Source: Sandaracinaceae bacterium
GTDB lineage: Bacteria > Myxococcota_A > Polyangia > Polyangiales > Sandaracinaceae
DNA length: 21,827 nucleotides
Direction of reading: 5' to 3'
Assembly: GCA_044220955.1 (NCBI GenBank)
Contig: JBGAQA010000007.1
Coordinates: 25,468 to 47,294 of the forward strand
Each line of letters begins with the position of its first letter. Within the stretch, counting starts at the first letter, position 1. A program made the translations under genes and the position numbers. Below, piece after piece: positions 1,415-14,208 of this stretch. Under the pieces are notes generated by a model. It searched no databases, was not told the DNA's origin, and was given only the letters and a program-made list of their open reading frames with translations.

Positions 1415-3586
<2,172 letters not shown>

Positions 3587-3605: not shown

Positions 3606-5078
3606 GTGTCGTCGCTCGAACGAGAAGAGACGCTCGACGGTCCCTTCGACGGGCCGCGCCGGCTCGTCCACGTCGAAGGCGAGACGCGCTGGACCGTCAC
3701 GCCGGCGCGCGCGGCCGCCGAGCTCGAGGCCCACGCGCGGCTCGCAGCGCATCCGCTCGCCGTCGCGTCTCTCGAGCGACGGGGGGACGCGCTCGTCTTT
3801 CCACGCCTCGCCGCCGCCGATCCGGCAGAGGCGGTCGACATCTTGCCCCTGGGAGAGGCGATCGTCCTCGAGACGACGCCCCGACGCTTCCTCGACGCGC
3901 TCGGGGGCCCCGTCGACGCGGTGCGGGCGCTCGGCCGCATCGAGCTCGCTCGTTCGCGCATCGATCGCTTCCTCGATCGCCGCCTCACGCTGCGCACGAC
4001 GCGCGGCGTCGACCTCGGCGGGGTGATGCCCGCCTCGATCCGGAGCCGCGCGACCGGCCTCGCCGCGCTCTCGGTGCGCCTCGGCCGTGTCGAGGGCTGG
4101 CCGGTCCTCGATCTCGCCTCGCTCGCGCTGCGCGCCGGGCTCGACACCGCGCCGGCGCATGCGTCGGCGGGTGGAGACGACGACGCGTTCGAGCTGGCTC
4201 TGCTGCACCAGGCGCTGCGGGAGCTGAGTGCGGAGCGCGACGAGGGGCGCCGCGCGCGCCTGCGGGAGCTCGCGCGAGCATCGATCGAGCGCTTCGTCCC
4301 GCGCGAGCCGGCCCGCGTGCAGCTCCGGGTCGCCGCGCCGGCGTTTCTGCCGCCTGCCGTCTTCGCGCCGCTCGGCGAGGTGGACAGCGCGCACGCGCGC
4401 CGGATCCTCGGCGCGTGGGACGGACTCGCCGTGGGCGGCGACGTCGTCCGGGTGGTGACCGAGCCCCCCCTCGCGCGACCGGCGCGTTGCTTCGCGTTCG
4501 AGCCGCGCCGCGCCCGGCGCGCGCGCCTCTTCTCGCGCTTCGAGGAGGGCATCGCGTTCGACGACGAGGGGCTCTTCTCGGCGACGCCGGAGGCCCTCGC
4601 CCTGCGCATCGCGGCCGGGCTCGAGGGAGTCGTGGTCGACGCGACGTGCGGCATCGGCTCGATCGCGATCGCCATGGCGCGCAGCCCGCGGGTGTCGCGC
4701 GTCGTCGCGATCGACCGCGACGCCAGCCGTCTCGCCATGGCGGAGCACAACGCGCGGATCTACGGCGTGCACGACCGGATCGACTTCCGCGCGGGCGACG
4801 CCCTGGCGCTCGTGCCGACGCTCGCGTTCGACGCGCTCGTGGTCGACCCGCCCTGGGGCGGGCGCGGCTACGATCGCGAGCACACAGGGCTCGGCGACCT
4901 CCGGATGCCGATCGCGCCGCTGCTCGGGCTCCCGGGAGCGCTCGTGCTCAAGCTGCCGCGCAGCTTCGACGTCCATGCGCTGCCCGCCGATTTCGAGATC
5001 GAGGCACTCCTCGACGAGCGAGGCGTGCTCAAGATGCTCGTGGCGCGTCGCGGGGTACGCTCGGGCTCATCGCGATGA
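3606..5078 (+). CDS. Multidomain SAM-dependent methyltransferase with C-terminal Tgs1-like (RNA cap guanine-N2 methyltransferase family) domain
   Basis: Frame of track ORF 3453..5078; start moved to GTG 3606 to avoid overlapping ligA (start uncertain). From nt 4527: LFSRFEEGIAFDDEGLFSATPEALA, VVDATCGIG (motif I), VVAIDRD, AEHNARIYGVHDRIDFRAGD, DPPWGGRGY, KLPRS. These are colinear with Tgs1 motifs as I recall them (LFSRFDDG..LD.EGWFSVTPE, DAFCGVGGN, NNAEVYG, SPPWGG, LPRN). Confidence 0.8.
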   Translation: MSSLEREETLDGPFDGPRRLVHVEGETRWTVTPARAAAELEAHARLAAHPLAVASLERRGDALVFPRLAAADPAEAVDILPLGEAIVLETTPRRFLDALGGPVDAVRALGRIELARSRIDRFLDRRLTLRTTRGVDLGGVMPASIRSRATGLAALSVRLGRVEGWPVLDLASLALRAGLDTAPAHASAGGDDDAFELALLHQALRELSAERDEGRRARLRELARASIERFVPREPARVQLRVAAPAFLPPAVFAPLGEVDSAHARRILGAWDGLAVGGDVVRVVTEPPLARPARCFAFEPRRARRARLFSRFEEGIAFDDEGLFSATPEALALRIAAGLEGVVVDATCGIGSIAIAMARSPRVSRVVAIDRDASRLAMAEHNARIYGVHDRIDFRAGDALALVPTLAFDALVVDPPWGGRGYDREHTGLGDLRMPIAPLLGLPGALVLKLPRSFDVHALPADFEIEALLDERGVLKMLVARRGVRSGSSR

Positions 5079-5629
5079 AGAAGCCGCCACAGGACCACAC
5101 GAGCGCGCACACGCCCTTCGAGACCTACGTGTTCCGGCCGATCGCGGTCGCGCGCACTCCGTACAAGGAGCGCTTCGGCGCGCCTCACCAGGCGGCGGTC
5201 GTGAGGGGCACACGCGCGCACGCCGACGCCGAGGGAACGATCGAGCTCGCGCCGCACATCCCCGTCGAGGCGTTGCGGCACCTCGAGGGCTTCGACTACG
5301 TCTGGGCGATCTACGTGTTCCACCTCAACGCCGGCTACCGCCCGCTCGTGAGACCGCCCCGCACGCCCGACGTCGCGCACGGCGTCCTCGCCACGCGGGC
5401 GCCGCACCGTCCCTGCAACGTCGGGCTCTCCGCGCTCCGCTTGCTTCGGATCGAGGGCCGCACCCTCGTCGTGCGCGGGATCGATCTCCTCGACGGGACG
5501 CCCGTGCTCGACCTGAAGCCCTACCTCCCCTACGCGGATGCGTTCCCCGAGGCCCGCGCCGGGTGGGTGGACGAGGCCGGCGGCGGCCCGGCGCACGAGC
5601 GCGAGCACGACGAGCCCTGGGACACGTGA
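5075..5629 (+). CDS. tsaA: tRNA (N6-threonylcarbamoyladenosine(37)-N6)-methyltransferase TrmO/TsaA (YaeB family), short form, 184 aa
   Basis: C-terminal part of track ORF 1883..5629 from MKKPP. The ATG at 5075 overlaps the upstream TGA. Motifs: TPYKERFGAPHQ, LEGFDYVWAIYVFH, VRPPR, GVLATRAPHRPCNVGLS, GIDLLDGTPVLDLKPYLPYADAFPEARAGW. Confidence 0.92.
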   Translation: MKKPPQDHTSAHTPFETYVFRPIAVARTPYKERFGAPHQAAVVRGTRAHADAEGTIELAPHIPVEALRHLEGFDYVWAIYVFHLNAGYRPLVRPPRTPDVAHGVLATRAPHRPCNVGLSALRLLRIEGRTLVVRGIDLLDGTPVLDLKPYLPYADAFPEARAGWVDEAGGGPAHEREHDEPWDT

Positions 5630-5648: not shown

Positions 5649-7724
5649 CTACATCGACGGGGCGCCCTGACAGCAGTTCACGGGCATCAGGAAGGGCACG
5701 CAGAGCGGCGTGACCGTCCCGTCCGCCTCCACGCGGTAGTCCTCGTTCGGCACCCGCATCTCGCGCGTCATGTGGCTGCCGCTCGCGTCGGCGCGCACGC
5801 CCTCCGGGTACCCCGCGAGGGTCGCCTCGTCGCGGAGCGGGCAGAGCGGAAGGTCGCAGAAGCGCCGGATCGGCTCGCAGCACTGTGCGGGCACGTCGGT
5901 CTGCATGCTTCGGTCGATCGGGCCGACCATTCCGGCCATCGGCCCGCTCGTGTGGAGCGCGCTCTGGCACGCCATGACGCCGCGGCCCTCGCTGCGGTCG
6001 GTGCGCTGCGCGTCGGCGGCCGGTGCGTGGGTCGCGAAGTCGGCGGGATCCACGACCGCGAAGCTGCCGCGACGGCTCTGGGTCGCGAGCAGGAGGCTCC
6101 CCGACGCCGGGACGTCGTGCGGGGCGCACTGCGGGATGCGCCCCATCGCGTCCACGGGATCGAGCTGGTTCAGCGCTCCGGGGTGGTAGTCGAGATCCGG
6201 GCAGCCCAGCTCGTTCGGGACGGACCAGGCCTGGCTCGAGTACTGCCCACCCTCGTAGATGATGCCAGTGTCCGTGCGGAGCGTGGCCGCGAGCTGGCAG
6301 CTGGTCTGGCAGTCCGCCATCGGCGTCCCGGCTGCGACGCAGCTCGTCATGCAGTCCTGATAGACGTCCACCACGCGCGCGCCAGCGACGCCCGCGAGCA
6401 CGTTCACGTCGTAGTTGCCGCTCGGGATCACCTGGCACTCCGAGCGCTGTGCCTCGTAGATGTCGGCCGCATTGCCGGGCGGGATGTAGGGGACGCGGCA
6501 GAGGATCGGCTGTAGCGGGTTGGTCACGATGACGCCGACGGGCGGCACGATCACGTCGGCCGCGCTGAACGTCTCGCGCGCGATGAACCCCTGAGAGGCG
6601 CCGCCCGCGACGGTCGGGCGGATCGAGCCGATCATGAGGACGTCCGGGATGCCCGCCCGGACCTCGAAGTCGTTGCGCGCGCGCTGGAGCAGGATGATGG
6701 GCGTGTACCAGTCGACGCCGTTCGAGCCGAGGATCGGGTGGGGATCGCCGAACCCGTTCCCATCGGCGTCCACGTGCTGCACCGGCATGCCGTGGACGAG
6801 CGGGTTGAAGTCGTACTGGATGCCCGCGGCGCTCAGCGCCGGGCCCCAGGGCCGGGTCATCCCGGTGGCGTCCGCGTCGAGCTGGTCACCGCTCGCCACC
6901 AGGCTGATGCGCATCGCCGTGAGATCCCAGAGCGCCGCCTCGGCCATGATGGCGTCGGAGATGAGCGGGATCGTCGCGGTCGACGGGAGGGCTCGCGTGG
7001 TGTCGTCGACCGTGAACATCGGGCGCTCGGTGTCGATGAGCGCCCCGAGCGCCACCGCGACGCCCTGGATCCGCTCGCCCAGCGGCTCCTCGGCCTCGTT
7101 GTGGAACGTGATGTGGCGGAACACGGGCACCGCGGCGGTCGCATCGACGAGCGCGCCTCCGCCGACGTCGCCAGCCGTCGCGAGGCTGCGCGTCCCGAAG
7201 AACGGGTTGAAGTCGCCGTCGTTGTCGTAGAAGCCGCGGATCTGGTAGTCGCGGCCGGGGTACGACCCGTCCGTCTCCTGCGGCCCCGTGCCCAGCGGGA
7301 TCGAGGGCCACGTGAAGCGGCCCGTCCGCGTGATGGGCAGCAGATCGTCCGCCGTCGGCGTCAGCGGCATGCAGTCCGAGAGGTTGAAGATGTCGCGGCC
7401 ATTCAGCGCGAACAGGCTCTGCGCCGTCGTCGCGCTACCCGTCGGCGGAGGCGGGTTGTCGTAGTCGAACATCAGCATGATCACGTTGCCGCGGATCGCG
7501 ACGGGCAGGGCCGGCTCGCTCTCCGTCCAGAGGCACTGCGGCCGCGGTCCGACGTAGAGGACGCTGCCCTGGATCACACCGAGCGGGTTCGGCGAGGCGC
7601 CGCCCTCGCGACGCTGGGTGTCGATGTGCGTGTCGACGCAGCCTGCGCTGCTCGCGAGCGCGAGCGCGGAGCCGAGCGCGAACGTCGTGCGGAGGAACCT
7701 CATGTCCGTGACTCGGTCGCGCAT
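5649..7724 (-). CDS. Large Cys-rich lipoprotein of unknown function (about 691 aa), partner of the TonB-dependent receptor
   Basis: C-terminal part of track ORF 5649..10397 from MRDRVTDMRFLR. The ATG at 7724 overlaps the receptor stop (TGATG); 7703 is an alternative start. Signal peptide with lipobox ALALASSAG-C, 19 Cys, and DNDGD and DADGNG acidic loops. Confidence 0.85.
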   Translation of the reverse strand: MRDRVTDMRFLRTTFALGSALALASSAGCVDTHIDTQRREGGASPNPLGVIQGSVLYVGPRPQCLWTESEPALPVAIRGNVIMLMFDYDNPPPPTGSATTAQSLFALNGRDIFNLSDCMPLTPTADDLLPITRTGRFTWPSIPLGTGPQETDGSYPGRDYQIRGFYDNDGDFNPFFGTRSLATAGDVGGGALVDATAAVPVFRHITFHNEAEEPLGERIQGVAVALGALIDTERPMFTVDDTTRALPSTATIPLISDAIMAEAALWDLTAMRISLVASGDQLDADATGMTRPWGPALSAAGIQYDFNPLVHGMPVQHVDADGNGFGDPHPILGSNGVDWYTPIILLQRARNDFEVRAGIPDVLMIGSIRPTVAGGASQGFIARETFSAADVIVPPVGVIVTNPLQPILCRVPYIPPGNAADIYEAQRSECQVIPSGNYDVNVLAGVAGARVVDVYQDCMTSCVAAGTPMADCQTSCQLAATLRTDTGIIYEGGQYSSQAWSVPNELGCPDLDYHPGALNQLDPVDAMGRIPQCAPHDVPASGSLLLATQSRRGSFAVVDPADFATHAPAADAQRTDRSEGRGVMACQSALHTSGPMAGMVGPIDRSMQTDVPAQCCEPIRRFCDLPLCPLRDEATLAGYPEGVRADASGSHMTREMRVPNEDYRVEADGTVTPLCVPFLMPVNCCQGAPSM

Positions 7725-10444
7725 CAGAACCTCACCGTGACCGTGCCCATGAACCGGCGCGGGATCGCTTGTCCGTACGGGTGCTCGCGGTGTCCGTCGT
7801 CGATCAGGTTGTAGCCGACGACCGCGAGCTCGAGCTGGTCGTCGAGGAAGCGCCAGCCGATGCGTGCGTTGAGCGTCGTGTACGACGCGAGCGGGAAGTT
7901 CTGGAACACGATGCCGCGGACCGGATCGAGCTGCTGCTCGAACCACGTCTGCGCGCTCTGCCAGGAGAAGTCGGCCGCGAGGTCGAGGCCGAAGGGCGCG
8001 CGGTACTGGAAGCCGCCGTTGACCATGTGCGCGCTCGTGCGCTGATCCGAGTGGTAGGGGCCTGCGGCGCCGCCGAAGGGCAGCGTGTAGCTCAGCGCGT
8101 AGTTCGCGTAGAGGTCGAGGCCGTCGATCGGGTACACGCGGACGCCGACCTCGCCGCCGGCCTGCTGGAACTGCTCGGGCGAGTTCTCGTAGAGGCCGGT
8201 CGAGAAGACGTACGAGCTGAGCGTGGGGTCGTAGCCGGGCGTCGTGCCCGCGATGCTGTTCCCGTTGACGTAGTCCGTGAGGCGGAAGATCTGGTTCTGC
8301 GTCAGCGTGATCAGGTCGAACGCCAGGTTGTAGTAGGCGTTGAACTCCAGCGTGAAGTAGTCGGTCATGGCGTTCATGTAGCCAATCTCGCCCGACACGA
8401 TGCGCTCGGGGTTCATGCTGGGGTTGCCGCTGCCGAACGCCGTGACGCCGCGGAAGGGCGTGCCCTGGGGCACCAGCACGTACGACTCGGTGAACGTCGG
8501 CGAACGGAAGGCGCTGCCCGCCGTGAAGCGCAGCGTGTTGCCCGGCGCCGGGTGGATGACGAGCGAGCCACGCGGCGAGACCTGCACGTTGAGCAGGGGA
8601 TGCAGGTCGCCGCGGATCGAGAGGACCAGGTCCACGTCCTCGCTGAACGAGATGGTGTCCTGGAGGAAGACAGCGCCGTGGTTCTGCGACTGGACCTCGC
8701 CGCGCAGCCACGTCCAGTCGATCTCCTTGAACCGGTAGCCGACGCCGGCGATGAGGTGGTTGCGGATGGCGCCGAGATCGAACGTCGCGTTGTAGAGCAG
8801 CTCGACGTCGATCACGTCCGACCGGCGCACGCTGGTGTTCTGCGAGAACGCGATGCCGCCGTTCAGCTGGTCGGGCGCGCCGATGTCCGGCGCCGAGAAG
8901 CGGTTCCAGAACACGCGCCCCGACAGGCCGACCGGCGAGGTCAGCTGGATGAAGCTCTGCGACTGGTAGGTCCCGCGCATGTCGAGCTGCCGGAGGTTGG
9001 CGACGGCCTGGAAGTTCAGCGATCCCTCGGCGACCGCGACGCCGCCGCGGATGCCCCAGCCGCCGTCGAGGCGGACCTGCGCCTCGCCACCGAAGAAGAG
9101 GCGCTCGAAGCCGCCGGTCGAGCCCGGACGCGGCGTGTAGTCGACGCGCGCGGGGTCGACGTTGAACGTGTAGTTGTCGCCGCGCTCGTAGCCGCCGCTG
9201 ACGCGGAAGCGCCAGCGATCGGCGTGGCCGCTCGCGCCGGCCGCGAGGCGGTAGACGCCGTTCGTGCCGACGCCGCCCGTGACGTAGCTGCCGCCCTCGC
9301 CGAGCTGCCGCGTGATGATGTTGATGACGCCCGTGAAGGCGTCGGCGCCATAGAGGGCCGAGGCGGGGCCTCGGATGACCTCGATGCGGTCGATGTCCTC
9401 GATGTTGACGGGCAGCAGGTGGAAGAGCGTGACGCCGATGAAGTCCAAGTACACCGAGCGGCCGTCCACGAGGACGATCGTGCGGTTCGAGAGGCGCTGG
9501 TTGAATCCGCGGATGCTGATCTGCGGATCGGCCGGGTCGGACGACATGATGGACAGACCCGCGACGCGACGCAGCGCGAACGCGGGATTGGTGTAGCCCG
9601 ACAGGCGCAGGTCCTGAGCGGTGACGATGGCGGTCGAGTTCGGCGCGTCGAGGGGCGACTGCGCGACGCGCGACGACGAGACGACGCTCTCTTCGTACGC
9701 GTCGGCCTCGTGCCCCGCGCCGAGCTCCAGCGTCGCCGGCAGCTCCTCCTCCTCGCCCTCGGCAGACGTCTCGGTGACCTCTGCGGTCTCGGTCTCGGCC
9801 GTCTCGCCGGTCTCCGCGGTGCCCGTCTCGCCCGTCTCGGCCGTCGTCGTCGAGGCGGTCTGGCGCTCGCGCAGCGACGCCGCGAGCTCGCGGAGGCGCT
9901 CGGCGCGGTGGCGGAGCTCCTCGGACTGCGCGGCCTCGGCCAGAGCCTCGATCTGCGTCGCCGAGTCCGTCAGCGCGCGGATCTCGTCGTCGGAGGCGAC
10001 CGGCGACGTCGTGGTCGTGGTCGTGGTCTCGCCGGTCTCCGCGGTGGTCGTCGTCTCCGCGACGTGGGTGCGCCCCTCCTGTGCGGCCACGCGCTGCTCG
10101 AGCGCGGCCAGGAACTGCTCGACCTCTTCGCGGTCGGCCGGGTCGCTCTCGAGGTACTGCCGGTAGTAGTCGATCGCCTCGGTGTAGCGACCGGCCTCCG
10201 CGTAGGCGCGCGCGATGTTGTAGAGGGCGTTGGGGTGCGGAAGGATGTCGTAGGCTTCGCGGAGCTCGGCGATGCCGTCGTCGAGGTGCCCGTCGGCGAT
10301 CAGCGCCATTCCGTGACGAAAGTGCTGGCGAGCTTCCGTTCGAACGTCGGCGTGCGCGACGTTGATCCCGACGATCGATGCGGCCAGCGATGCGCACAGG
10401 GCGAGCACGACGCGCGTCGCGCTCTCCCGATAGCGTTCCTTCAT
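7724..10444 (-). CDS. TonB-dependent outer-membrane receptor with N-terminal TPR domain
   Basis: Signal peptide ending ...AHA, then TPR-like helices (EARQHFRHG...EAYDILPHPNALYNIARAY...AIDYYRQYLE) and a Thr/Glu linker. Plug domain: VVSSSRVAQSPLDAP, ISIRGFN, VLVDGRSVY, IDRIEVIRGPASALYGADAFTGVINIITR. Barrel ends ...GYNLID...RRFMGTVTVRF with a terminal Phe. Start at MKERY (10444), with GAGGGA upstream. Confidence 0.95.
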   Translation of the reverse strand: MKERYRESATRVVLALCASLAASIVGINVAHADVRTEARQHFRHGMALIADGHLDDGIAELREAYDILPHPNALYNIARAYAEAGRYTEAIDYYRQYLESDPADREEVEQFLAALEQRVAAQEGRTHVAETTTTAETGETTTTTTTSPVASDDEIRALTDSATQIEALAEAAQSEELRHRAERLRELAASLRERQTASTTTAETGETGTAETGETAETETAEVTETSAEGEEEELPATLELGAGHEADAYEESVVSSSRVAQSPLDAPNSTAIVTAQDLRLSGYTNPAFALRRVAGLSIMSSDPADPQISIRGFNQRLSNRTIVLVDGRSVYLDFIGVTLFHLLPVNIEDIDRIEVIRGPASALYGADAFTGVINIITRQLGEGGSYVTGGVGTNGVYRLAAGASGHADRWRFRVSGGYERGDNYTFNVDPARVDYTPRPGSTGGFERLFFGGEAQVRLDGGWGIRGGVAVAEGSLNFQAVANLRQLDMRGTYQSQSFIQLTSPVGLSGRVFWNRFSAPDIGAPDQLNGGIAFSQNTSVRRSDVIDVELLYNATFDLGAIRNHLIAGVGYRFKEIDWTWLRGEVQSQNHGAVFLQDTISFSEDVDLVLSIRGDLHPLLNVQVSPRGSLVIHPAPGNTLRFTAGSAFRSPTFTESYVLVPQGTPFRGVTAFGSGNPSMNPERIVSGEIGYMNAMTDYFTLEFNAYYNLAFDLITLTQNQIFRLTDYVNGNSIAGTTPGYDPTLSSYVFSTGLYENSPEQFQQAGGEVGVRVYPIDGLDLYANYALSYTLPFGGAAGPYHSDQRTSAHMVNGGFQYRAPFGLDLAADFSWQSAQTWFEQQLDPVRGIVFQNFPLASYTTLNARIGWRFLDDQLELAVVGYNLIDDGHREHPYGQAIPRRFMGTVTVRF
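9775..10065 (-). repeat. Low-complexity Thr/Glu-rich linker repeats (TAETGET-like) within the receptor
   Basis: Protein segments AETTTTAETGETTTTTTT and TTTAETGETGTAETGETAETETAEVTETS flank a helical segment. On the + strand they appear as repeated gtctcg/gtctcc units. Confidence 0.7.
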
Positions 10445-10591
10445 TCTTCCCTCTTCAGAGAAACGGCCCCGACTGCCCACCCTGTTCTGAGCAGGCTCGC
10501 AGAGTCCGGGGCGACTTGTCGAGCTTCGTGTGGCCCGGCATTCGCTCTCACTTACCGCCCGGGTGGATCGTCCGTGGGGCCCGAGCCGGGC

Positions 10592-12316: not shown

Positions 12317-13672
12317 TCAGTCGCCTCCGCCCGAGCCGAAGATGAACGGGAACACCACATCGACCTCGCCGCCGTCGGGCTGGTCGAAGCGCCAGTTCCG
12401 CACCTGCCGCACGATGCACCCCTCCACGCCTGGGTTGCCCATCGTCGAGCGCGCGACGCGCGAGGTCGTGACGCGCCCCTCGCGGTTGATCCGCCAGGCG
12501 ATCTCGATGCGCCCACGCAGGCTCGGCTGTCGCTGGAGCTGGGCCTCGTAGCAGTAGCGGACGGCGGCCTGGTTCTGCCGCACCACGCGCATGATCTGCT
12601 CGGGCGAGAGGTAGCCGGACACGTGCGGCGTCTCGGTCTGCATGCGCACCGCGACCTCACCGTGCGGACGGCCGCGGGCGCCGGGGCCACCGCTGCCCCG
12701 TCCGCCGCCGGAGCCGCTGCCGACGCCGACGCCGGTTCCGACGCCGCCGCCTCCGAACAGCGTCCCGGGCCCGGTGCCACCACCGCCCGAGCCGGTGCCG
12801 CGCAGGCCCGTACCGCCCGAGCCGCGGCCCCAGACGGTCCGGGCCGATCCCAGCCCGCCGAGGATGTCGCTCACGCTCGGCCCGTCCGCGAGCGCGGCGA
12901 GGGGCGAGTCGGAGTGGAGGGCCTTCAAGAGGCCCATGTCGGACACGCGCTCGGCCGCGCCGCCGCCGCCGTTCACCTCACCCTCGAGCTCGGTCTGGTC
13001 TTGCTGCGCGTCTTCCTGCCCGACGCGGCCTTCCTCGTCCTCCGCCTGTGCACCCCCCGCCTCGTCGCGATCCTGGATGCCGGGATCCTCGGTGTCGGTG
13101 CCCCCCGTCTGCTGCTCGATGAGGTCCTCCGGAGGCGGCGTGACCATGAAGCGGGTGATCAGGTCCGTCGGCAGCTCGAGCGCGTCGAGGTCGTCGCTCT
13201 CCTCGCGCGCGAGGTACATCATCCCGCCGAAGGCGGCCGCGAAGAACGCCGAGAGCATCTGGCTCGCCCAGTACGTCCCGTCGAAAGCGAGGGACCACCC
13301 TGGCTTCTTGGCGGCGCGGACGTGCTGGAAAAAGAAGGCGACCTGCCCGAGCGTGACGACCCCGTAGTCGTCGGGCCCCAGATCGAGGCTCGGGCCGCTG
13401 GCCCTCAGGGACGACACGTCCTGCCGCGCGCCTCCTCGCCAGACGGCGCCGCCCAGCTCCGAGGCGAGGTTGAGGCGGTACCCGTTGCCGGCGGGCGTGA
13501 GCAGCGTGACGTCGCTCGGCGCCAGGTCGGACGGGAGCGGGAGCAGCGCCGCCGCCGTGTTGCCCGCGATGATCGGCCGCGGCTTGTCGATGGTGGTCTC
13601 CATCTGGAGCGACCCGTTCCAGACGAGGGCCACGCGGAGCTTTCGGTCGGAGGCGCTGACGGCTGTGCTCAT
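12317..13672 (-). CDS. AgmX/PglI C-terminal (TonB-C-like) domain protein, GltG-like gliding-motility paralogue
   Basis: N-terminal beta-rich cytoplasmic domain (KLRVALVWNG...), one TM segment (MLSAFFAAAFGGMMYL), an acidic then Gly-rich linker, and C-terminal GYLSPEQIMRVVRQNQAAVRYCYEAQLQRQPSLRGRIEIAWRI...VEGCIVRQVRNWRFDQPDGGEVDVVFPFIF. Confidence 0.85.
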   Translation of the reverse strand: MSTAVSASDRKLRVALVWNGSLQMETTIDKPRPIIAGNTAAALLPLPSDLAPSDVTLLTPAGNGYRLNLASELGGAVWRGGARQDVSSLRASGPSLDLGPDDYGVVTLGQVAFFFQHVRAAKKPGWSLAFDGTYWASQMLSAFFAAAFGGMMYLAREESDDLDALELPTDLITRFMVTPPPEDLIEQQTGGTDTEDPGIQDRDEAGGAQAEDEEGRVGQEDAQQDQTELEGEVNGGGGAAERVSDMGLLKALHSDSPLAALADGPSVSDILGGLGSARTVWGRGSGGTGLRGTGSGGGGTGPGTLFGGGGVGTGVGVGSGSGGGRGSGGPGARGRPHGEVAVRMQTETPHVSGYLSPEQIMRVVRQNQAAVRYCYEAQLQRQPSLRGRIEIAWRINREGRVTTSRVARSTMGNPGVEGCIVRQVRNWRFDQPDGGEVDVVFPFIFGSGGGD

Positions 13673-13722
13673 GATCTGCTCGACACCTCGGATGCAGCGC
13701 GGTTCTCGATTCCCGGGCCCGC

Positions 13723-14208
13723 CTAGAAGGATTTCTCGTGCGTGGAGCGCTCCATCTCCCCGATGAAGGAGCGATGCGGCAGGCGCGGGCGATCGAACTC
13801 GGCACGCACGCGGTTCAGGAAGTAGAGGAGCTGGGGCGACTTGAGCCGGCCCGAGACGTCGAGGCCGGTGAACTCGAGCACCTTCACCTTGGAGCCGCCC
13901 TCCTCGTGGAAGCTGCTCGACGCGTCGGCGCCCTCGCTGTCGCGGCCCTCCGGCGCGTCGGGCTCGGCGGTGTCCGATGCCGGACCGTGCTCGGTCGTGT
14001 CGTGCCCGGTACCGGTGCCCGTCTTGGCGTGCGGCGACGTGTCCGCGGCTGGCGTGGAGGTGTCGCGCTTGGTGTGGCGGCCGCGGCCCTGGCGGGCGTG
14101 CGTCGGGGAGCCGTCCTGCCCCTCGGCGAGGCTCGCGGTGCCCGCGCCGGCGAGCGCGCCGCAGAGGGCGAGCGCCAGGAGCCGGCGAACGGTCGGTCGC
14201 AGCACCAC
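13723..14208 (-). CDS. Secreted GltF/CglF-like small protein
   Basis: Signal peptide (RRLLALALCGALAGAG...AEG), disordered middle, and C-terminal VLEFTGLDVSGRLKSPQLLYFLNR...SFIGEMERSTHEKSF resembling the GltF-family tail. It sits directly upstream of the GltG-like gene, the same order as gltF-gltG in Myxococcus. Confidence 0.65.
   Translation of the reverse strand: MVLRPTVRRLLALALCGALAGAGTASLAEGQDGSPTHARQGRGRHTKRDTSTPAADTSPHAKTGTGTGHDTTEHGPASDTAEPDAPEGRDSEGADASSSFHEEGGSKVKVLEFTGLDVSGRLKSPQLLYFLNRVRAEFDRPRLPHRSFIGEMERSTHEKSF

Follow-up and report, generated by a model that had tools for sequence, protein, structure and literature searches.

The window, i.e., the whole stretch of 21,827 nucleotides of Sandaracinaceae DNA that was analysed, carries a gene for a methyltransferase of the Tgs (cap guanine-N2 methyltransferase) family. 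The gene lies between those for a DNA ligase and for TrmO, with the trmO start overlapping the Tgs gene's stop codon (ATGA). The features are as follows.

1415..3499, minus strand: NAD-dependent DNA ligase LigA, divergently oriented (Pfam)
3606..5078, plus strand: whole gene, 490 aa, with kinase-fold domain, small alpha/beta module and Tgs-family methyltransferase
3633..4301, plus strand: APH/choline-kinase-fold domain (residues ~10-232), a two-lobed atypical kinase fold in the model
4302..4490, plus strand: small alpha/beta module (residues ~233-295), from homologue alignments
4497..4592, plus strand: Tgs N-terminal extension (R304-R305, L308-F309, E321, S325, T327-P328-E329), from alignment to 3GDH, residue counts and model
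4638..4664, plus strand: SAM motif I, DATCGIGSI, with D345 equivalent to human D696 (residue counts, 3GDH alignment)
4845..4871, plus strand: catalytic and guanine-stacking motif DPPWGGRGY (D414, W417, Y422), with DPPWGG invariant in 35/35 homologues
4950..4964, plus strand: KLPRS, with Lys449 at human Phe804 (34/35) and Arg452 equivalent to the phosphate-binding Arg807 (counts, 3GDH alignment)
5075..5629, plus strand: TrmO/TsaA tRNA m6t6A37 methyltransferase (TIGR00104 above cut-off)

The reading frame is open from 3453, and the 490-aa database product (P0003), which is 100% identical over the query, begins with the GTG at 3606. Codon-position GC takes on a gene-like pattern only at 3606 and beyond (GC2 0.55 and GC3 0.88, vs 0.76 and 0.76 upstream), full-length homologues run to about 430-550 aa at 32-69% identity, those with an organism name suggesting Sandaracinaceae as the source, and the predicted structure of the 490-aa protein has a pLDDT of 93.7. 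A preliminary description of this DNA had started the gene at 4527, but the region so delimited is the last 183 residues of the longer gene beginning at 3606. The motifs described there do lie where they were placed, that is, LFSRFEEGIAFDDEGLFSATPE from 4527, DATCGIGSI, DPPWGGRGY (its D at 4845) and LKLPRS.

This gene is a true bacterial branch of the Tgs family. Set against RsmD, Trm11/Trm14 and the THUMP types, TGS1 is the best match in sequence, profile and fold alike, by wide margins. With phmmer against the PDB, human TGS1 (3EGI/3GDH) has an E of 2.7e-25, whereas the methyltransferase that follows it reaches 4.8e-6. The methyltransferase domain scores 98 bits against fish TGS1 (P0225), with 16 of 23 identities over its first 23 residues, and the best of 200 shuffles, 72 of which gave any score, reached 3.0; judged from these comparisons the likeness to TGS1 is far beyond chance. 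The model of the protein superposes, from residue 298, on the active, m7GTP-bound human form (3GDH) with an rmsd of 1.8 A and 37% identity, the fold including the active N-terminal extension. The Pfam family PF09445 is not by itself diagnostic, as 11 of 14 control genomes contain a match above its cut-off.

RsmD and Trm11/Trm14/TrmN share with the query a class I fold and (D/N/S)PP(Y/F/W) chemistry on guanine N2, and PG_1098, Trm14, Trm11 and TrmN are the next-best folds after TGS1. TIGR00095 (RsmD) has no match to P0002/P0003 at E 0.001, however, and Pfam finds no THUMP domain, the mark of Trm11/Trm14/TrmN/RlmL, the N-terminal domain having a kinase fold instead. The PG_1098-type methyltransferase (PF18096; 3LL7) carries a THUMP-like domain, which the query does not, shows no pocket signature of GG..Y and LPR, and stands apart in a 133-row tree. 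Displacement of RsmD was considered and rejected, as this genome's RsmD lies elsewhere (C282) and is a separate gene in 39/39 carriers.

To describe the pocket, residues from the accessible text of PMC2709555 were mapped onto the first 35 of the 38 rows of a homologue alignment, the three most divergent being dropped. In human numbering, the SAM and cap contacts are kept as follows, out of 35: F655 35, E667 34, S671 31, T673 35, D696 35, D719 34, N731 35, D747 33, P764-G768 35 each, Y771 (the motif's Tyr) 33, and P806 35; at R807 there are 28 Arg and 4 Lys. The (S/D)PPWGGxxY motif with its stacking Trp is thereby present, as is the pocket-completing N-terminal extension, to which F655, E667, S671, T673 and N731 belong. 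The query itself has in common with human TGS1 the pocket residues W766, S671, T673, E667, Y771 and R807 along with the SAM contacts D696, D719 and D747. The methyltransferase domain is, too, the best conserved part of the protein (61% mean identity vs 37% for the N-domain).

Differences from human TGS1 nevertheless exist, and three of these, DPPW, GIGSI and LPRS, had been named; missed were Phe804 to Lys, Asn704 to Ile and the loss of Lys646-Tyr647-Trp648. Among the 35 rows S763D, N808S and W669L are found in 35 each and F804K in 34, and Lys646 and Tyr647-Trp648 are lost from these bacterial homologues, an Arg-rich stretch standing in place of the human KYW motif of the extension. Of the polyphosphate contacts K646, Y771 and R807, the first is lost and the other two are kept; as Arg807 is instead Pro in 103/120 of a sister Myxococcota form, such contacts are not a constant feature of the bacterial clade. 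Human TGS1 with S763D is reported to be 97% active (PMC2709555, in the part available), and Giardia Tgs2 R186A to keep 73% of activity (PMC1865056, likewise).

More consequential may be the residue closing SAM motif I. Here it is Ile353, in place of human Asn704 or Giardia Asp76, and across the 35 rows it is Ile (18), Leu (16) or Trp (1), a polar residue thus being absent, vs Asn in 118/120 of the sister Myxococcota form. Excerpts of PMC2709555 and PMC1865056 give 5% activity for human N704 changed to Ala and 2.5% for Giardia Asp76 so changed. We treat this as a variable position, its loss presumably being a variant within the Tgs family, while loss of the Asp76 equivalent is the main point against full activity. 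The earlier interpretation is partly supported.

Giardia Tgs2 has DPPWGGVDY where the query has DPPWGGRGY and, by motif spacing onto the available text of PMC1865056, 10 of its 11 important residues are kept, with Asp76 the exception. The DGT/DAT form of motif I is common to the query and to Giardia Tgs2 and giant-virus Tgs. In the 133-row alignment giant-virus homologues have, as in the query, Asp at 763 (23/23) and Lys at 804 (21/23), vs Ser at 763 (32/32) and Phe or Tyr at 804 (27/32) in the eukaryotic SPPW clade. Giardia Tgs2 and giant-virus Tgs differ from the query group, however, in that the equivalent of Asp76 is Ile/Leu in the latter, and in that they work in cells which make m7G caps. 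The marks of the two-methyl eukaryotic Tgs1, i.e., SPPW, an aromatic 804, KYW and a place within the eukaryotic clade, are all absent from the query, which unlike human TGS1 has a kinase-fold domain and small module in front, occupies a separate tree branch, and is without an snRNA/snoRNA substrate.

The kinase-fold domain keeps the alphaC Glu (Glu39, 34/35). When the other residues are placed by eye, using secondary structure and a consensus for the fold, Gly139 (33/35) falls where the catalytic Asp would be, Trp/Ala where the metal-binding Asn would be and Ser/Arg156 where one expects the DFE Asp; there is no Asp at the columns so mapped for HxD...N and DFE. Relative to the APH/choline kinase/fructosamine kinase fold (LicA, FN3K), the catalytic Asp, Asn and DFE-Asp thus appear to be replaced, and the domain is probably an inactive ‘pseudokinase’. 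At the sequence level no match joins it to those families; hhalign against one APH-like protein gave 0.1% probability and was uninformative. Fusion of such a probable pseudokinase to a Tgs domain is undescribed in the literature examined. The small module is missing from some homologues and is the sole N-terminal domain of the shorter Myxococcota form; its similarity to SRp46 and SR-protein fusion RRMs is weak and non-significant (E 0.2-1.4), with no Pfam RRM match in 21 members, and it is possibly a reduced RRM.

The gene is conserved by lineage, with strong matches (E below 1e-60) in 20/24 Sandaracinaceae genomes; in other families of the order 4/16 genomes match below 1e-20, and in a phylum sample 49/301 match at 1e-12, one match each, i.e., single copy. 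These phylum matches cluster by family (e.g., 10/10 and 6/6 vs 0/26, 0/23 and 0/18). Of 19 family loci, 17 include the kinase-fold domain, and contig ends truncate the other two; among 29 phylum loci it occurs in 9, in two of these incompletely. The remaining phylum loci hold a form of ~270 aa with the small module only, of which named examples come from Enhygromyxa salina and Nannocystaceae. There is also a third, short form (~210 aa), in which the YW motif is retained; 30 of the 51 loci returned match it with E values no worse than 3e-30. One of those 30 is probably a eukaryotic contaminant contig, and the rest belong to Pseudomonadota, Planctomycetota, Bdellovibrionota, Actinomycetota, candidate phyla and one archaeon.

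Several side observations concern these other forms. The short group (L051-L080), which includes one Iainarchaeum, keeps a YW...R...LFSRF extension and is nearer the eukaryotic motif set than is the query. One Planctomycetaceae bin (L079) has Vps16 and an SPPW Tgs1 on its contig and is probably a eukaryotic contaminant, and L084 and L087, which cluster with giant-virus sequences, may represent viral contigs binned with bacteria. A Bdellovibrionota genome has two short Tgs-family genes in tandem (L070:6905-8356). A further bacterial architecture (P0124, P0131, P0143; L181:4430-9198, L182:6028-7083) joins Fic, a TadA-like deaminase, a further Fic, a second methyltransferase and a Tgs-type domain, near toxin-antitoxin/IS genes or within a Mu-like prophage, and could be an assembly line for nucleotide transfer, N7 and N2 methylation. 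Viral contigs yield giant-virus-type homologues at 22-35% identity, and a search for phage-borne copies only 7 generic partial matches.

Trees were built from subsets of 133 and 71 rows by quick search with SH-aLRT support only, the 71-row tree under a mixture model. Support in the two trees, respectively, is 99 and 98 for the kinase-fused group, 99 and 96 for the eukaryotic SPPW clade, and 99 and 99 for the giant-virus homologues' own branch, which among the 133 rows also includes one Elusimicrobiota row. All Myxococcota forms group together at 99 (133 rows) and at 82 under the mixture model, there with two long-branch THUMP-like proteins inside. The phylogeny that had been suggested as a check places the query outside of the eukaryotic clade, and does not fix the deep order of Myxococcota, short, viral and eukaryotic groups. 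On these trees the query is not nested among eukaryotes, and they name no donor. Eukaryotic contamination or recent transfer was rejected given host-like GC and codon pattern, bacterial neighbours, presence in 20/24 family genomes and a position outside of the SPPW clade.

No conserved operon was found: trmO lies within the 1.5-kb flanks at 4 of 19 loci from relatives, all of the same genus, ligA in 0/19, an exonuclease-III-like gene in 9/101 loci, and the rest vary. The neighbours scanned were 104/111 and 65/76 listed ORFs, plus one more. Nucleic-acid genes recur loosely (Nudix in 2, nucleotidyltransferase in 3, HD in 2), a count made with no control and given little weight, and trmD with an RNA methyltransferase, and a pseudouridine synthase, adjoin two short-form genes. 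The exonuclease-III-like gene is found in at least two Myxococcota families (L026, L029, L030, L031, L034, L038, L044, L050, L081), in family f33 PP2C-like and metallophosphoesterase genes flank the Tgs gene, and in one lineage (L055, L059, L061) the short gene has folK and other genes of folate/pterin type close by on the opposite strand, pterins having the same 2-amino-pyrimidinone ring as guanine. Elsewhere in the window, on the minus strand, are a 918-aa TPR and TonB-dependent receptor followed by a long protein without Pfam match (5649-10480), and a 451-aa Gly-rich protein with a small partner, without Pfam support (12317-14208), which look like gliding-motility genes (AgmX/GltG-like) of myxobacterial type. 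Rfam and promoter scans returned nothing.

What the enzyme does is suggested by its better-known relatives. We tentatively favour a single N2-methylation of an m7G 5'-polyphosphate, ahead of an internal rRNA/tRNA guanosine, then a non-catalytic role or other acceptor, then an unmethylated terminal guanine. Prior N7-methylation is a requirement of Tgs1, Tgs2 and TvTgs alike (PMC4615557, PMC2588526, in the text available), an m7Gp4Gm cap is reported from E. coli RNA, its methyltransferases being there not known (PMC7044304, in part), and RNA turnover would presumably release m7G nucleotides; it is this combination that favours m7G. With SAM bound in the Rossmann core, N7-methylguanine would stack on Trp417 and be walled by Ser325, with the N-terminal extension closing the guanine pocket while Tyr422, Arg452 and the Arg-rich extension hold the phosphates. 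N2 would then be activated by Asp414 and the DPP carbonyls so that one methyl is added, giving m2,7G, with Lys449, at human Phe804, probably blocking a second round. The acceptor would most likely be an m7Gp4Gm-type RNA cap or m7GDP/m7GTP from RNA turnover, and the kinase-fold domain and small module would be non-catalytic RNA-docking or regulatory parts. That only one methyl is added is inferred from Giardia Tgs2 doing so (PMC4615557, as excerpted) and from Phe804 being proposed to hold the first methyl in human TGS1 (PMC2709555, same limit), but this inference is soft, as TvTgs has Ser in its motif yet methylates once (accessible text of PMC2588526). Literature examined reports no m7G caps in any myxobacterium, and this genome (88% complete) has no Pfam match to a capping guanylyltransferase or cap N7-methyltransferase. 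For bacteria the available text of a modified-nucleoside review lists only m7G of this series and no m2,7G (PMC7694415), and m2,7Gm is mentioned, in the portions consulted, only in thermophile or archaeal contexts (PMC8818000, PMC7668247).

Somewhat unlikely, by comparison, is that the enzyme N2-methylates an internal rRNA or tRNA guanosine, either plain G or m7G (e.g., tRNA m7G46 or 16S m7G527), with N-terminal modules that dock folded RNA. The gene's single copy and conservation by lineage would fit this, as would the trmO overlap, the RNA-modification genes by two short-form genes, the eroding phosphate-binding residues, the next-best folds and the weak RRM likeness. TrmB and RsmG occur in 36/39 and 38/39 carriers (chosen from positives), so that internal m7G is available, though uninformatively, both being near-universal; TrmB was not found in this genome at 1e-12, probably through incompleteness. 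Against this stand the retained Tgs-specific extension, closing the pocket over a terminal nucleotide, RsmD kept by all carriers, two other THUMP/RlmL-type methyltransferase genes in this genome, a trmO linkage confined to the genus, and an RRM match that is non-significant.

It is unlikely, too, that the protein has little or no methyltransferase activity and works instead by binding m7G or nucleotides or in regulation, or that it methylates another amino acceptor (adenine N6, pterin, deazaguanine). The lost SAM-loop Asn/Asp and the fusion to an apparently dead kinase point that way, and (D/N/S)PP(W/Y/F) motifs are general to amino-methyltransferases (PMC2709555, in part). The remaining SAM and catalytic residues vary little or not at all, however, in a strongly conserved domain, and the guanine-reading backbone and Trp are kept. 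Unmethylated terminal guanines, i.e., of pppG-RNA, GpnN caps, GTP/GDP and (p)ppGpp, are abundant in bacteria. Their N2-methylation here, Asp414 acting as the general base in the manner of Trm1/Trm11, is quite improbable, for while DPP motifs serve plain-G methylating enzymes (PMC2709555, PMC1865056) and m7GTP in human TGS1 has its 3'-OH exposed to a solvent additive (PMC2709555), Giardia Tgs2 with DPPW still needs N7-methylation (PMC4615557, PMC1865056) and TvTgs does not methylate GTP (PMC2588526), all as given in the accessible passages.

Relatives of this gene are auto-annotated by NCBI and JGI as trimethylguanosine synthase. Prokaryotic look-alikes of Tgs were reportedly first noted by Mouaikel in 2003. 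The Tgs family is said, in the available text of PMC2588526, to appear exclusively eukaryotic, with a similar uncharacterised family cited for archaea as well as Gram-positive bacteria. A full-text literature search, with subscription papers and supplements outside of its scope, returned no study of a bacterial Tgs. No bacterial capped RNA is known upon which a Tgs-type enzyme acts. The literature examined treats Tgs as eukaryotic with viral copies, whereas here the m7G pocket is kept in a conserved bacterial gene. Such a pocket implies that bacteria have a substrate containing m7G or G that has yet to be described, and possibly m2,7G, a nucleoside unlisted for bacteria, and offers a handle, in the cultured Sandaracinus amylolyticus (WP_236607502.1), on which enzymes methylate bacterial polyphosphate caps. 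It bears as well on the origin of cap hypermethylation. Decidedly doubtful is the broader proposal that Myxococcota and short-form bacteria make m2,7G RNA 5' caps via Tgs, under control of the fused pseudokinase, and so shield chosen RNAs from decapping. Were that true, there would be several deep bacterial Tgs lineages, i.e., kinase-fused, small-module, short and Fic/deaminase-fused, and a cap-modifying enzyme of bacteria could be the ancestor of TMG capping in eukaryotes.
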